A stretch of DNA of 64,000 nt from Nitrospirota bacterium (GTDB lineage: Bacteria > Nitrospirota > UBA9217), in assembly GCA_963754875.1 (NCBI GenBank), contig CAVWHO010000011.1, positions 1-64,000 on the forward strand. The letters are read 5' to 3'. Made by a program: the position numbers and the translations under genes. Positions 4,988 to 16,517 of the stretch are shown piece by piece. Under the pieces are notes generated by a model, which was not told the origin of the DNA, made no database searches, and saw only the letters and a list, made by a program, of their open reading frames with translations. Numbering within the stretch: position 1 is the first letter of the stretch; every line of letters starts with the position of its first letter.

Positions 4988-5819
4988 CTACAGCCTCGGC
5001 ATCGGCTCCGACAGCGTGCCGCCGAGACTGAACTGGTAATACCCTTCCGCATCCCTGTTCTTCAGAAGTGATAAAATTCCCGCTTGTTCCTGAGCGAGGC
5101 GTTCCGAAGGCTTAAGTTTCACGGTAAGGTTGATCGTGCCGCGCTCGCGGAGCACCAGGTCTCCCAGACATTGGATCTTGAGCTCCTTGCCGTTCATTTC
5201 CAGCTTCCTGATCGTCAGCCGGTCGCCTTTGAGATCGGCTTCGATCCAGCATTCGTCGAAGTCCATATCCGGGACCGGAAAACCCTTTATCTTCAGCTCG
5301 CGTATGGCCAGGCCTTTGAGCCAGATCCTCCCCTTGCCCGTATCGTTGGTCACCTCGAAATTCCCGCCGAGCTTGCCGGTCAGCTTCAGTCCCAAATTTT
5401 TCAGGAGCTGGTAAGACCCGATGTCCAGGCCGTTTGCGTCGCACAGGAGGTACTGACGGCCGGGACCCTGCTGGATCTTCAAGGACAGATCGCCGCCGTA
5501 CGCTTTGGCTTTCAGATCTGCGGCAAGGTTGCCGCGCAGCAGGCTGAAGAGCGAGATCGTCGTTCTGACCGAGGGGCTTTCGAACAACACCTTGCCGGTT
5601 TGATCGGAAACGACGACATCGGACAGGAGGAACGCTGTTGAAGAACCGCGGTGAAATGCGGGAGATATTCAGTTCCACCGGAGTGCGCTGGCGGACTTCC
5701 GACTCCAGCTTTGCCTTGACCCGGTCAAAGGGAAATAAGAGGAGAAGGAAGATGAGAAAGGCTGCTGCGAAGTATGCAACGAACGAAGCGCGTCTGATGA
5801 GCAGTTTTTTATCGATCAT
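4988..5819 (-). CDS. gspN: Type II secretion protein N (apparent frameshift near 5635)
   Basis: N-terminal TM ending LFPFD, C-terminal LGGTLSEP; last gene of the gsp operon. Confidence 0.8.
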
Positions 5820-5822
5820 GTC

Positions 5823-6323
5823 CTACCCGGCGCTCGAGACGAGGATCGTCGCGTTGAGCAGTTTGGGATTGTCATAGCGGGGCTTGAACTGGAGCTTCCT
5901 GATCCGCAGCGTGTTTTTTTCGAGCAGATAGACGTAGTTCACGATATCGTAGAGCGTTATGTTCTCAAGCTTGATCTCGACGATGCTTTCCTTGAATGCC
6001 GCGGTCTGAACGCCCGCCTGCGGCTTGAGCGACACGATCTTGCTGCTCAGGTTCGCCTGTTTCGAGAGGTTCTCGATGTCCGTGAGCAAGGGGCCGCGCT
6101 TGGCCGCTTCTGCCTGAGCTTGCTGCAATTGTTTTTGAATCTCCGTGTACTCCGTCCGCAGCGCCTTCATCTCCTCAAGATCTTTCTGCTTTCTCGGGAT
6201 CAATTCCCGCTTCCGGGAAAGGTCGGACGTGAGCGGAGACAGCACGAGCGCATAGAGCAGGATCACGATGGCCGCCGCGCCGCCGAAAATAAGGAACTTT
6301 TTATCTCGTTCTTCTAGTTTCAA
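5823..6323 (-). CDS. gspM: Type II secretion protein M
   Basis: ERDKKFL followed by one TM helix, coiled coil and a ferredoxin-like C-terminus; operon position. Confidence 0.8.
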   Translation of the reverse strand: MKLEERDKKFLIFGGAAAIVILLYALVLSPLTSDLSRKRELIPRKQKDLEEMKALRTEYTEIQKQLQQAQAEAAKRGPLLTDIENLSKQANLSSKIVSLKPQAGVQTAAFKESIVEIKLENITLYDIVNYVYLLEKNTLRIRKLQFKPRYDNPKLLNATILVSSAG

Positions 6324-6346
6324 GAAACACCTCGAATGCTATTTGG

Positions 6347-6791
6347 AACCACAGATGAACACAGATGGACACGGTCAAACAACAAGTCTTTGATATTCTA
6401 ATTTTGGCTTTGCAAAGTTTAAAAGCAGTCCCACGCGTAGACCGGATATCCTCAAATAGTTCAATATCTGTGCACGATGGACATCGTCAATTTTTTCTAC
6501 TGATTTTACTTCCACTATCACGCTGTCTCCGACAACGAGATCAGCGTAATATTTACCAACTTCCTTGTCCCGATAAAGCACGTTAAACGCATGTTGAGAA
6601 GTGACATTCTTTTCCTTAAGCTCCAAATCCCACGCAAGCGCATTTTCATAAACTTTTTCCAGCAGCCCGCAGCCTAATGCATTATGGACTTTGAAAACCG
6701 AGTCCATAATTTCCCTGGTCAGATCTTTATAGAGGAACTCCTTCTCAGACTGCATTGTTTTTACCGTGTTAATCTGTGTTCATCTGTGGTT
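6347..6791. mobile_element. 445-bp GxxExxY cassette bounded by 29-bp inverted repeats
   Basis: AACCACAGATGAACACAGATGGACACGGT (6347-6375) versus the reverse complement of 6763-6791, AACCACAGATGAACACAGATTAACACGGT; 27/29 identical; sits between gspL and gspM. Confidence 0.75.
6375..6755 (-). CDS. GxxExxY protein (PD-(D/E)XK nuclease-like)
   Basis: GLLEKVY motif, ADLVV...IVEVK catalytic pattern, AQILNYL...GLLLNF; visibly more AT-rich than flanking gsp genes. Confidence 0.92.
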   Translation of the reverse strand: MQSEKEFLYKDLTREIMDSVFKVHNALGCGLLEKVYENALAWDLELKEKNVTSQHAFNVLYRDKEVGKYYADLVVGDSVIVEVKSVEKIDDVHRAQILNYLRISGLRVGLLLNFAKPKLEYQRLVV

Positions 6792-6799
6792 TCATGAGC

Positions 6800-8132
6800 T
6801 CACATCGCCTGCTTCAACTTGAAATCGAACCGGAACTTCACCTTATTGTCCACGCCCATTCTCGTGTCCAGGACCTGCACCTCGGCAAAGGCGCCGGACT
6901 TTTGTAATTCGGCTTTCATTTTATCGATGGACTCGAACGATGCGGCCTCGCCCTGAAGCTTCAGGTGGTCGCCTTCGAGGAGAAAATCCTGAAAAATCAC
7001 GCGGACTTCCTTGGGGATGCCCTCGGTCACGGCCTTCATCACGTCGAGCACGGACGTTCCCGACCCGAGCGCGCCGAACTTCTTCTTCGATTCATCCAGC
7101 TTAGCGCGGAGCTGCCGCACCGGGTCGGCAACCGACTTTGCTTCAGGGTCCGTTTGACGATAGATCTCCTTGATCTCACGGTCGAGCTTACCGTAACTCG
7201 ATTCGACCAGGTAATATTTCACGCCGAGGTTTGCCACGACAAAGACCACGGCAAACGCTCCGGCGATGATGAGCGTTCGCCGTCTCTTGCGCGCGCCCAC
7301 ATCGGCGAGCCGGTATGCAAACTCGCCCTTCCGGAAGTTTATCTGGTCGCTGAGCGCAAGACCCAGGCTCGACGGGATCCGCCGGCTTTTTCCCCGCGAA
7401 GTCCGGCGTTATCCGCTCGGTTGCGATCCCCAGGTCGGCAAGATCGGCATGCAGCCCGTCGTTCTCGGAAATGAGGTAGGCCTTCTCGATCTGCGTTTTC
7501 TGTTCAGTCTCGAACGCTTTTAGCGTATGCCGGATGCCGCCAGCTGCGCGCGATGTGGAGAAGCTCCTGCATGCAATCACGTTGCTGCCGATCTTGAGGC
7601 AGAGATCGGTGCCGTCAATGATGACGGCTGCGCCCTCCACCGGGATCAGCTTTGCAATACAGGAAAGTCCTACATAGGACGGTATAATGACCTGCGGGTC
7701 AACGCCTGCCGTGGCAAGGAGTTCCAGGTGCTGCCGCAAGGCGGTTTTCGGTAGCATGATGCCGAGCACAGCCGATTCCTTCTTTTTATCGGCCCCTGTT
7801 TCGGCCCGGTCCAGTACGACATGGTCCAGCTCCACGTCTTCCAGAGCAAACGGGATGTTGTCTTCCAGTTCGAACGGCAGGGCCTTTTCCACGCGCTTGC
7901 GGTCATTGAAGGGAAACGTGAGGGTCCGCTGGCTGAACTTGCTGCCGGGAATGGACGAAACAATGCGCGCGCCGGCCCAGTCACGCGCTTTTGCGCTCAG
8001 GATGTCCGCCAGTTCGGTGTCCGTGGCAAAGGGAACGCTGTAGGAGTCTTTGAGCTCCGTCTGGCGCAAGCCCTTCTCCACAACCGACACGGCAAGCTTC
8101 CCTTTCTCGATTTTGAGGCCAACGATTTTCAC
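6800..8132 (-). CDS. gspL: Type II secretion protein L (apparent frameshift near 7370)
   Basis: Actin-like N-terminal domain (ALPFELEDNIPF), TM helix and periplasmic domain over ORFs 7188-8132 and 6800-7300. Confidence 0.85.
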
Positions 8133-11161: not shown

Positions 11162-11183
11162 ACGAACCTCCTCATAAAAATTG

Positions 11184-11272
11184 AACCCTCAGATGAACGC
11201 AGATTAACACAGGTATCAAATTCAGGAAATCTTCAAGTCTTTAACAGTGTCCATCTGTGTTTATCTGTGGTC
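11184..11272. repeat. Empty (ORF-less) relative of the GxxExxY inverted-repeat cassette
   Basis: AACCCTCAGATGAACGCAGATTAACACAG ... ACAGTGTCCATCTGTGTTTATCTGTGGT, the same 10-bp subunits as 6347-6791, in the gspF-gspG gap. Confidence 0.75.
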
Positions 11273-11286
11273 AAATGTCCTATGCT

Positions 11287-12507
11287 TTACTGCACTCCGG
11301 AACTCATCTGGAGCATGGGCAGCATGATTGCGATGACGACGAACCCGATGATCAGCCCCATGACGAGGATGATGACCGGCTCCAGGAGCGCCATGAGCCC
11401 GGTTAGGCGCGTTTCAACGGTGCGGTCGAAGGAATCGGAAATCTTGAGCAGCATTTTTTCGAGCTCACCGCTCTTCTCGCCCACGGCGACCATCTGGACG
11501 ACGACGGGCGGGAAGAGGCCGCTCCTCTTGAGCGGATCGGCGATCGGTTCGCCTTCCCGCACGTTCTCCCGGGCCTGCGAAATGGCGTTCGCGAGGACCG
11601 TGTTGCCGACGACGCTCTTCACGATGTCGAGCGCCGCGAGCGTCGGCACTCCGCTTTGGAGCAGGGTCCCGAGCGTGCGCGTGAACCGCGATACGGCGAT
11701 CATCCGGATCAGCGAGCCGAAAACCGGCGCCTTGAGCAGCCGCGCGTCGAAGTTCTCCTTGCCCGACTGGGTGTTGAGATACCGCCTGGCGTAGTAGACC
11801 GCTCCGGCGATGGCAATCAGGATCGCCCACCAGAACGACGACAGGAACCGCACGGTGCCGAGCAGGATCACCGTGATCAGCGGAAGCTGCTGCTTCATGT
11901 CCTCGAACATGCCCACGATGCGGGGCATGACGAAGCTGAAAATAAAGAACAGCATGCTGATGCCGATGACTGTCATGAACGCCGGGTAGGCAAGGGCTGC
12001 AGAAATCCTGCCGCGGAAACGGACCTGTTCGTCCAGAAAATCCGCAAGCCGGTCCAGGGTTATTTCAAGGGTGCCGCTCGCCTCTCCGGCGGAGACCATG
12101 TTCATATACAGCTGCGAAAAGACCTTGGGGTTTTCCTTGAGCGCATCGGCGAGCGAAGCGCCTTCGCGCACCGAATCACGCACCGCGGACAGGGCGGATT
12201 TCAGCGCCGCATTTTCCTCCTGGTCCACCAGCACCGACAAGCTGTCCATCAGCGGAAGGCCGGAGGACAGGAGCGTGGCCAGCTGGCGGGTGGCATTCGC
12301 GAGATCGGTGAGCTTCACGCGCGTGCCGAAGGTGATCGCGGTCGTTCCCCGGCGGGCGGCGCGGGCGGAGGCGCCCTCGCGGATCTCCAGGACGATGACG
12401 CCCTCTTTCTTGAGCTTCGTCTTAATGGCCTTCAGGCTTTCGCCGTCCTGAACGCCGGAAACCTTTTTTCCTGCAGCCGTAACGCCTTTATATTCGAATA
12501 CGGGCAT
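11287..12507 (-). CDS. gspF: Type II secretion inner-membrane protein F
   Basis: TRQLATLLSSGLPL, AGEASGTL, VGEKSGELE, LLEP motifs. Confidence 0.96.
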   Translation of the reverse strand: MPVFEYKGVTAAGKKVSGVQDGESLKAIKTKLKKEGVIVLEIREGASARAARRGTTAITFGTRVKLTDLANATRQLATLLSSGLPLMDSLSVLVDQEENAALKSALSAVRDSVREGASLADALKENPKVFSQLYMNMVSAGEASGTLEITLDRLADFLDEQVRFRGRISAALAYPAFMTVIGISMLFFIFSFVMPRIVGMFEDMKQQLPLITVILLGTVRFLSSFWWAILIAIAGAVYYARRYLNTQSGKENFDARLLKAPVFGSLIRMIAVSRFTRTLGTLLQSGVPTLAALDIVKSVVGNTVLANAISQARENVREGEPIADPLKRSGLFPPVVVQMVAVGEKSGELEKMLLKISDSFDRTVETRLTGLMALLEPVIILVMGLIIGFVVIAIMLPMLQMSSGVQ

Positions 12508-14300: not shown

Positions 14301-16517
14301 CGCGCTCCCTTCGCGGGGGGCCGCCGGTTGCACGGGAGAAGCATCGCCGGCCTTATTATCCGGTGTCGCTTGGGGAGGAGCAGTCGGCACTTCGTTCGAT
14401 TTCAGTTCTGAAACAGGCTTTCCGACAGCGCCAGCAGGGACGCCGTTCCCGGGAGCGCTCGTCACCGGCATTCGACTTCAGTTCCGGCGTGGGCGTTTCG
14501 GAGGACTTTCCCGGGGCTGCAGCAGGTGTGGTTGTCACCGCATTCGACTTCAATTCTGGAACAGGCTTTCCGACAGCGCCAGCAGGGACGCCGTTCCCGG
14601 GAGCGCTCGTCACCGGCATCGACTTCAGTTCCGACGTGGGCGTCTCTGATGACTTTCCCGGGGCTGAAGCAGGTGCAGTTGTCACCACATTCGACTTCAG
14701 CTCGGCTTCGGGCTTTGCAACTGCTTTGGTCGTCGCGGTTGCCGAAGGTCGTTCTGCAACTCCACTCGTGCCGGTGTGATACTGGGCTCGGAAAATTTTT
14801 TCTCCATACGGTATTCTTTACGGAACTCTTCGAGGGACTCATTCTTCCGTCTCGTCAGTTCGCCTGCCTCGTTCTCATCCTTGATGATATAAGGCGTTAT
14901 GAAAATCATGAGATTGGTTTTTTCAATACTGGTTGTTTTTGATTTAAAGAGCCAGCCGAGAATGGGAATATCTCCCAGGAACGGCACCTTTGACGTCGAT
15001 GAGGTGAGGTTATCGCGGATAAGGCCGCCGATGACCATGGTCTGGCGGTCCTTTACCACGATGGTGGTGCTTGCCGAACGTTTGCTCGTCGTCGGGCCCG
15101 CTGGATTATTTGTGGAAGACGCAATGACGTCGGAAATCTCCTGGTTTACTTCGAGTCGCACAGTATCGTCTGAAGAAATTTGCGGTGTTAGCGTCAACTT
15201 AATGCCAACGTCCTGCCGATTGACCGTATTAAACAGTGCCCCGGTGCCTGTTGTTGCATTCTGTGTCTGACCTGTAATAAAAGGCACGTTCTCACCCACC
15301 ATGATCTCGGCCTTCTGGTTGTCCATGGTCATGATGTTCGGTGTTGAAAGCACGTTCACGTCGCCGTCAGTCTGGAGCGCATGAATGAGCGCGCCGACAT
15401 TCAGGAAGGTCTGATTGTTATAGGTGAAGGTCCCCTTGATCACGCCCACGGCAAGTCCGCTCATATTGCTCAGGGCCGCCGGACCGCTGGCGACTAAGGG
15501 GACGATGTTGCCGAAGTTCGTACCGCCGAAGGCCGTTGCCGGCGATCCCGGACCAATATCCCCAGGCGCGGTCAGGAACTCCAACCCGATGTCGCGCATC
15601 TTTGACAGACTCATCTCGATGATCGCCGCCTCTACGTATACCTGACGGCGCTTGATGTCGAGCTTTTGGATCACGTCCTTCACGACTTCGAAATCAGCCG
15701 GCGCAGCGACGATGATCAGCGAATTCGTGGACTTGTCCGCGCTGATGTTGACCGGTCCTTCCAGGATCGTGGCAGGCCCGGCCGGTTGCATTCCTCCTGC
15801 CGGCGGCACGGGCAGGCGCGACACGAGCGCCTGCAGCTGCTTGGCCATATCTTCCGAGTTCGCGTTCTTCAGGTAATAAACGTTGATCTTCCCTTTGCCT
15901 TCCGGCGCAGCGACATCCATGATGTGGATGAGGTTTTCAAGTTTTCTGAGGTTGGAAACGGCATCGGTGATGATGACGGAATTCGTAACCGGATAGGCGA
16001 TAATGGTGCCGTCTCTGCTGACAAGGGGCGTTATCGTGCGGACGATCTCTTGGGGGTTCACAAAGGTCAACCGGATAAGCTTGGTCACGTAGCCTTCCCC
16101 TTCAGTGCTGCCGTCCTGGAGTACCTTGAGCCCGCTCTGGCGGGCCGACGCTGCGGGGATGATCCTGGTGACCTGGCCGTCTTCGATTGCGGTAAAACCC
16201 TTGATTTCGAGGGCCGAAAGAAAGACCTGGTACGCTTCTTCCGGCGATATTTTGTTCGGCGTCATGATCGTTACCTTGCCGGTCACGCGCTCATCGAGGA
16301 GAAAGTTTCTGCGCGTCAGCTCGCTCATGACCTTCACGAGGGCGCCGATGTCGATGTTCGTAAAGTTCAGCGTAACGTAATCGTCGCCGGCTTTGAATTT
16401 CTTGATGTCAATCTGGCTGGTAGGGAGAGCAGAGGAAGTCGGCGCCGTTACTTGCGCGAATACTACCGGTGCATTCACAAGCCCAATCACAAGCAGCAGG
16501 GCCGCTATTTTTTTCAC
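14297..16517 (-). CDS. gspD: Type II secretion secretin D with repetitive C-terminal tail (apparent indels in the tail)
   Basis: N0/N1/N3 domains, QVYVEAAIIE, VGENVPF, DVGIKLTLTPQI, VPFLGDIPILGWLF; GTG start at 16517 with GGAGG RBS. Confidence 0.92.
14395..14700. repeat. Coding tandem repeat, alternating ~75-bp and 72-bp units (A-B-A-B)
   Basis: Units begin TTCGA(C/T)TTCA; they encode ELKS-x-x-VT...APG repeats in the GspD tail. Confidence 0.85.

Follow-up and report, generated by a model that had tools for sequence, protein, structure and literature searches.

A predicted GxxExxY nuclease gene bounded by inverted repeat arms, an old resident of the gspL–gspM junction in a Nitrospirota family, and its possible resemblance to RAYT/REPIN systems

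The stretch of DNA analyzed here (the window; 64,000 nt, from a Nitrospirota bacterium) carries a 126-amino-acid (aa) GxxExxY gene between inverted arms identical at 27 of 29 positions, located at the gspL–gspM junction (Table 1). The gene fills almost all the space between the arms, which are built of the 10-bp units ACAGATGAAC/ACAGATGGAC/ACAGATTAAC and constitute the longest inverted pair reported by a repeat finder within positions 5000 to 8000, the match stretching to 36 nt at 89% identity. The upstream arm lies 8 bp from the gspL stop codon (positions 6800 to 6802), the start of gspM is at position 6323, and the cassette has a G+C fraction of 0.41, compared with 0.55 for gspM and 0.57 for the end of gspL. 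No transposase motif was found in the cassette, whose sole profile matches were PF13366 and TIGR04256, and no target duplication flanks it. These features had been described in an earlier note made from the sequence of the window alone, and the anatomy given there was confirmed throughout. The 8-codon ORF to which the same note drew attention is present; it is out of frame, lacks conservation, being missing from the arms of several relatives, and is probably incidental.

Table 1. Features of the cassette and its surroundings in the window
Feature	Position	Strand	Description
GxxExxY gene	6375..6755	-	126 aa; PD-(D/E)XK fold; RecB/Cas4-type motifs E33, D72, E82-x-K84, Q96xxxY100
Upstream arm	6763..6791	-	Three 10-bp units, core C-R-C-R-G-A-T; begins 8 bp past the gspL stop
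Downstream arm	6347..6375	+	Matches the upstream arm in inverted orientation (27/29); overlaps the GxxExxY stop codon
8-codon ORF MKPQMNTD*	6769..6795	-	Runs through the upstream arm, in a different frame from the GxxExxY gene
gspL, 3' part	6800..7300	-	Host gene upstream of the cassette; likely source of transcription
gspM	5823..6323	-	Host gene downstream of the cassette; Pfam call
Gene-less arm pair of the window's arm type	11185..11272	.	Between gspF and gspG, same operon

The encoded protein matched PF13366 with an E value of 1e-39 (136 bits against a curated cutoff of 22) and TIGR04256 with an E value of 2e-41 (141 bits against 35), and its close homologues are labelled Nitrospirota. GxxExxY/PDDEXK_3 is a very common family, entered as function unknown in the tabulation of PMC3424549. 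In an alignment of 76 sequences, G30, E33, and Y36 of the GxxExxY motif are invariant, as are D72, K84, and Q96, and E82 and Y100 are kept in 75 sequences; the alignment shows no conserved Fe-S cysteines. A structure model built from this alignment reached a pLDDT of 94 (the single-sequence model, at 40, was unusable) and places the invariant GxxExxY in two N-terminal helices. Foldseek returned four matches at an E value of ≤0.001, all of them chains of the Cas4 protein SSO0001 (best E value, 1e-4), followed by lambda exonuclease, and the homing endonuclease I-Bth0305I was among its weak matches. In a wider structure search, SSO0001 (Z score of 8.1, root mean square deviation of 2.0, 90 aligned residues) tied with two other PD-(D/E)XK (restriction-endonuclease-like) folds, and Hjc matched with a Z score of 6.7. 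The PD-(D/E)XK fold class is thus clear in the model, and the nearest family within it is not singled out because SSO0001 and the two other folds tie at a Z score of about 8. Searches of PDB sequences gave no match, and the ESM Atlas gave none outside PF13366. The model combines the fold with motifs I (E), II (D), III (ExK), and QxxxY of RecB/Cas4-type nucleases, a set also described for Cas4, RecB, and lambda exonuclease (SSO0001, 4ic1) in the sections of PMC8610317 dealing with these enzymes, and the protein is likely an active nuclease. It differs from Cas4 in consisting of the 126-aa core only, without conserved Fe-S cysteines or CRISPR context, and in having the two N-terminal GxxExxY helices. 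At four other loci (G082:C129, G070:C5, G075:C16, and G058:C90), GxxExxY matches lie inside open frames of 300 to 570 aa, which are possibly fusions or in-frame insertions.

Inverted arms are a trait of GxxExxY genes at large. With two sets pooled, they were found around 170 of 220 genes and in 4 of 622 control windows. The first set comprised 150 intact genes with enough flank, relatives included and hence not independent (five intact genes without flank were not scored); of the 150, 119 had an inverted pair with a score of at least 28, compared with 4 of 459 windows shifted by 0.9 to 1.25 kb. In the second set, retrieved from metagenomes, arms were present at 51 of 70 genes and in none of 163 controls. 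Approximately one fifth of the intact genes had no scoring inverted pair, and some lay among direct or outward-facing arms. The loci come from archaea and from many bacterial phyla, which are intermixed on the protein tree. The arms of the family consist of tandem 9- to 10-bp direct units with the core C-R-C-R-R-A (CRCRRAN) and have no internal palindrome. Mapped onto the protein tree, a quick tree in which many forks are open and 39 rows have no arm type, the unit type changes 42 times compared with 72.8 times after shuffling, and none of 200 shuffles gave so low a number; this clustering may stem from shared ancestry alone. A single genome can hold several GxxExxY subfamilies, each with different arms. 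The other subfamilies likewise sit each at its own junction, where the window's genome (G000) has remnants, other repeats, or nothing. At C13:90850-91290, G000 has a second, frameshifted GxxExxY copy with its own CACGGAGA-type arms, and intact orthologues occupy the same junction in G020 and G024.

Where similar genes occur at different sites, DNA similarity breaks off no more than a few bases from the arm tips (L118/L137/L127, L110/L131, L143/L144, and L142/L149), which indicates that the arm-gene-arm segment is the unit that moved. Such gene-bearing copies are 76 to 88% identical (78 to 88% for the closest); no near-identical gene-bearing copies were found at unrelated sites, and no recent jump was caught. 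The search for target duplications of 3 to 8 bp at five offsets in 148 gene-bearing elements gave none above shuffled levels, and a small excess of 2-bp duplications (15 compared with 5.6) is accounted for by the inverted symmetry. The idea put forward in the earlier note, a transposase-free selfish element whose protein would act on its own repeats, is partly supported: it fits the arm association, the co-variation of arm and protein, the arm-tip boundaries, the gene-less pairs described below, and the absence of a transposase motif and of a target duplication. Few GxxExxY genes were found on plasmids (8 among 72,556 records, including several megabase replicons) or in phages (2 among 50,697, both partial matches). 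Two contigs assigned to different phyla, one to WOR-3 and one to Planctomycetota (L087 and L088), are 89% identical across the gene and roughly 0.5 kb of flank on either side, reflecting either transfer between phyla or misbinning.

Among 98 loci with called neighbors (102 examined, with crude ORF calls including at least one known miscall), the upstream neighbor was co-oriented with the GxxExxY gene in 89, compared with 70% for ordinary ORFs of this genome, and the downstream neighbor in 70, no more than the usual 68%. The upstream excess fits a promoterless gene surviving where read-through transcribes it. It would also suit the suggestion in the earlier note that the cassette behaves as an intervening sequence, the arms pairing in the mRNA and looping out the ORF or being processed to remove it, as would the long sense-strand stem into which the cassette folds (z = -5.1). 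Any inverted repeat is expected to fold likewise, however, and the orientation of the downstream neighbor is ordinary. Arm mismatches in 169 elements could be paired as G-U on the sense strand in 170 cases and on the antisense strand in 158 (P = 0.54), with no sign of a stem selected on the transcribed strand, and the variable arm positions coincide with the purine-degenerate positions of the repeated motif, as in protein-binding sites. The RNA-level claim was thus not upheld, and an intervening sequence is highly improbable.

The history of the site was followed at 53 gspL–gspM junctions from 64 genomes of the family, two further junctions being dropped because gspL was missing from the contig. 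The gene is intact at 10 junctions and broken at 5; 4 hold the same arms only, 3 hold arms of a different type, and the remaining 31 were classed as having none; by eye, at least 4 of these contain arm remnants and several contain unrelated repeats. All 13 homologues with at least 67% identity in the 64 genomes sit at gspL–gspM, the next matches (44 to 47%) lie elsewhere, and no gsp genes flank the relatives of 61 to 69% identity that occur in other lineages. The median dN is 0.16 for the GxxExxY gene, 0.23 for gspL, and 0.19 for gspM; the median dN/dS of 0.08 is unreliable since dS is saturated in most pairs, and the only unsaturated pair, G000 and G003, has a dN of 0.041 and a pS of 0.22. 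A fresh insertion is ruled out by the occurrence of the cassette at the same junction across the family, alongside broken, arms-only, and empty alleles. The earlier note, which called the cassette cleanly inserted, was right about its anatomy and not about the recent event that this implied, and the vertical conservation that it named as contrary evidence is found in part, since the gene is present family-wide at the junction, is intact at only 10 of 53, and has been lost repeatedly. The cassette has thus long resided at this one site, subject to loss again and again.

The comparison with empty sites proposed in the same note recovered both empty and arms-only junctions, but the empty ones are mutually unrelated and have no sequence in common that could serve as a target. 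Thirteen pairs of filled and empty alleles were aligned; in the one interpretable pair (G014/G013), about 6 to 7 bp stand where the cassette would be, between the outer arm tips. The junction is also a hotspot, gene-less alleles holding palindromic REP-like repeats, short tandem repeats, or other arm types (L031-L053 and L308-L338).

Free-standing homing endonuclease genes are site-faithful and patchily distributed, with decayed and empty alleles, and the window cassette resembles them in all these respects. A homing cycle would have the nuclease cut gene-less (empty or arms-only) gspL–gspM alleles and the intact cassette copied in by gene conversion after transfer between relatives, to decay, be lost, and reinvade. 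Besides the site fidelity of the 13 homologues, this account draws on the scatter of intact copies over the host tree (9 changes, compared with 9.4 after shuffling) among broken, arms-only, and empty alleles. It further draws on the gene appearing younger than its neighbors between G000 and G003, where third-position identity is 0.84 for the GxxExxY gene and 0.68 to 0.69 for gspL and gspM (P = 6e-4), and on the rejection of the host topology by the GxxExxY alignment (AU test, P = 0.008). However, the controls fail, since gspM rejects the gspL topology as well (P = 2.6e-5) and gspE third positions are equally conserved (0.84); there is no clear co-conversion gradient into gspM, and one ancient insertion followed by many losses accounts for the scatter equally well. 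The evidence for lateral replacement at gspL–gspM is mixed. Unlike homing endonuclease genes, moreover, the cassette has cognate inverted arms, no conserved empty target, and gene-less derivatives, and a homing cycle would not account for the dispersed arm pairs. Homing is unlikely. One contig of G003 (C51; L062) carries a second gsp fragment 96% identical to that of G014; this fragment and its GxxExxY copy are probably bin contamination, and the repeat counts of G003 may be inflated.

Arms also occur away from the gene. A genome scan of the kind that the earlier note had called for found the exact arm motif of the window 18 times in G000 and the reversed control not at all; a looser pattern gave 64 matches, compared with 21 to 24 in shuffles, and about eight gene-less inverted pairs, including the one between gspF and gspG. 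This last pair recurs at gspF–gspG in 4 of 14 relatives, and one further relative has a different arm type there. Between G000 and G003 it differs at about 4 positions in 125 bp (11165-11290), spacer included, and is better conserved than the third codon positions of gspG and gspF (0.72 to 0.76).

Exact arm motifs outside the cassette are about tenfold more numerous in the 10 genomes with an intact gene (median, 23.5) than in 38 others (median, 2; P = 1.6e-4), a comparison that leaves out 11 genomes without a readable junction. The five broken-gene genomes have a median of 20, the 23 genomes with other GxxExxY genes a median of 4, and all 13 genomes without any GxxExxY match contain 0 or 1. 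Some genomes without the gene at gspL–gspM hold 18 to 22 motifs, and one with an intact gene has 1. A control repeat gave 6 in intact-gene genomes and 2 in the others (P = 0.13). After correction for kinship, 3.5 to 3.9 of 7 independent pairs point in the same direction and about 0 in the opposite one, which is not significant (P = 0.125 to 0.25). The contrast persists without the genomes rich in the IS1380-type ends described below (8 compared with 30 genomes; P = 0.001), exact ends having been counted and variant ends not.

That arm number tracks the gene would also be expected of a domesticated host gene that resolves or trims arm hairpins and cruciforms in the manner of Hjc, or serves in defense or repair, and persists only as long as the genome is rich in arm pairs. 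The same is suggested by purifying selection on a gene that stays at one site, by its rarity on plasmids and in phages, and by the fold match to Hjc. Against this stand the loss or breakage of the gene at 43 of 53 junctions, the coexistence in one genome of several unrelated subfamilies with different arms, and the mixing of phyla and archaea on the tree. Domestication is very unlikely.

Young gene-less copies in relatives have a different origin. An approximately 165-bp repeat family with window-type arms occupies 13 sites in G003, its full-length copies being mostly 93 to 99% identical; its true ends lie 18 to 21 bp beyond the arms, with 5-bp direct repeats on either side. Among 36 paired copies across genomes, these duplications are exact in 21, have one mismatch in 10, and are worse in 5. 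IS1380-family (IS1380/ISEcp1) elements produce target duplications of 4 to 5 bp, as noted in the account of the family in PMC12116815. The same ends bound a 1,624-bp insertion sequence (IS) in G019 that encodes a 518-aa PF13701 transposase (divergent, 58 bits) and is present in four copies, two with exact 5-bp duplications (L577-L580); they mobilize several MITE families across Nitrospirota, with a target preference for W-T-N-A-W. The young gene-less arm copies, which share their ends with an autonomous element and have the 5-bp duplication, are thus IS1380-family MITEs of 143 to 334 bp carrying arm pairs, and they are uninformative about the nuclease; the IS1380 partner with the same ends rules out the 5-bp duplications as a nuclease footprint. 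IS1380 MITEs enclose at least five arm unit types, flush against both IS ends (L436-L545). PF13701 was not found in the incomplete assemblies of G000, G003, G006, G013, and G014, and G000 contains an IS1380 transposase fragment.

These elements raise the alternative that the arms serve as binding sites, either in autoregulation or for a host protein, that DDE transposases such as IS1380 do all the moving, and that the nuclease is cargo. The gene-less copies with IS1380 ends and duplications, the autonomous IS in G019, and the transposase fragment in G000 all speak for it. An IS1380 origin of the window cassette itself is not supported, however: the cassette and 14 orthologues score 3 to 8 of 13 against the IS ends, as does background, and none of the 19 arms scored in G000 reaches 10. 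The cassette has neither such terminal repeats nor a target duplication, both of which age could have erased, and it has no DDE transposase; in the 148 gene-bearing elements there is no duplication of 3 bp or more, and the similarity of gene-bearing copies stops at the arms and not at outer IS ends. The same IS ends also exist without arms inside and are therefore a separate module. A passenger role is quite unlikely. In G003, 28 of 58 arms examined sit behind IS ends, which indicates that arms can spread without the GxxExxY protein. No young arm-only insertion without IS ends was seen among the copies examined, and the G000 counterparts of the G003 MITE sites are too diverged for an empty-site comparison.

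The reading that we prefer, and to which we give about an even chance of being correct, is that the cassette is a RAYT/REPIN-like system run by a RecB/Cas4-type nuclease, resident at a fixed site and maintaining or rarely copying arm-bounded DNA. In such a system, the GxxExxY gene would be expressed by read-through from the upstream gene, and the predicted nuclease would bind duplex DNA at the 10-bp units that make up its own arms, cutting at or beside them. Host repair would then keep, and now and then copy, the arm-bounded DNA, as RAYT does for REPINs, and the dispersed gene-less pairs would depend on the protein. A hydrolytic nuclease alone cannot join strands, and copying would therefore have to use host recombination or repair, in keeping with the lack of target duplications and with how very rarely the elements move.

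REPIN-RAYT systems, as outlined in bioRxiv 10.1101/2021.07.10.451892, likewise combine a small enzyme gene with cognate inverted repeats at one intergenic site per lineage, have gene-less inverted pairs of about 100 bp with variable spacers dispersed intergenically, and are rare on plasmids. The window's subfamily has this arrangement of a single-copy gene at one extragenic site with dispersed gene-less pairs. A host-congruent gene tree, another hallmark of those systems, is rejected here by the AU test, but the gspL/gspM control disagrees too. The enzyme described for REPINs in that preprint is of the HUH/tyrosine type, whereas the window's is PD-(D/E)XK, without HUH and catalytic tyrosine; REPIN arms hold a short palindrome, whereas those of the window are tandem 9- to 10-bp direct units. 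The GxxExxY system further differs from its description of REPIN-RAYT in having several subfamilies per genome, tens rather than hundreds of copies, and representatives in archaea, where that preprint reports REPINs as not detected. The cassette fails the defining tests of RAYTs, DDE elements, and RNA intervening sequences.

The nearest printed description found comes from Geobacter metallireducens and concerns paired, gene-less tandem repeats, the class 2 "predicted global regulator binding sites" of PMC2700814, which are opposite-strand pairs of three tandem repeats with a variable spacer. Read in reverse complement, their consensus there, TCTCCGTS[Y], gives the CACGGAGA unit that makes up the arms of the broken C13 copy in G000. 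The unit differs from that of the window arms, and the passage describing the sites proposes them as possible IHF/HU sites and draws no link to a nuclease gene. The link between arms and GxxExxY genes explains this class of intergenic repeats, left unexplained in Geobacter in 2009. No description of the link was found in the full-text literature, most subscription journals being outside reach. For the selfish-DNA design of a nuclease gene together with gene-less copies of its arms, no earlier description was found either.

The arms supply a candidate substrate for the GxxExxY/PDDEXK_3 family, and if the protein maintains or copies them, prokaryotic repeats can be propagated without any transposase chemistry. 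More broadly, and tentatively, being somewhat less probable than not, GxxExxY proteins may drive a class of selfish DNA that has no transposase and is widespread among bacteria and archaea, a second and independently evolved RAYT/REPIN-like system. In it, a minimal Cas4/RecB-like nuclease would read helically phased, subfamily-specific 9- to 10-bp units and cut, host repair would copy without target duplication, and IS1380 MITEs would parasitize it by capturing arm pairs; the family would then represent a natural library of tiny sequence-selective nucleases. The gspL–gspM locus is useful in this regard because a single subfamily keeps to a single site throughout 64 genomes and its alleles, whether intact, broken, arms-only, or empty, can be compared, with the caution that target duplications at gene-less copies stem from IS1380 and not from the nuclease.

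Three further observations concern the window itself. One extra base at positions 7370 to 7372 frameshifts gspL relative to that of G003, yielding ORFs at 8132..7188 and 7300..6800, and is either a real lesion or an assembly error. A proline/alanine-rich tandem repeat at positions 14350 to 14700 (units like PELKSN...TPAAAPGKSSETPT), just past the main gspD frame, may be the frameshifted C-terminal tail of gspD. At positions 460 to 1760, beside a P-II gene, a gene judged from its translation to be ammonium-transporter-like appears to be split into overlapping ORFs, which suggests that there are more frameshifts in this assembly.
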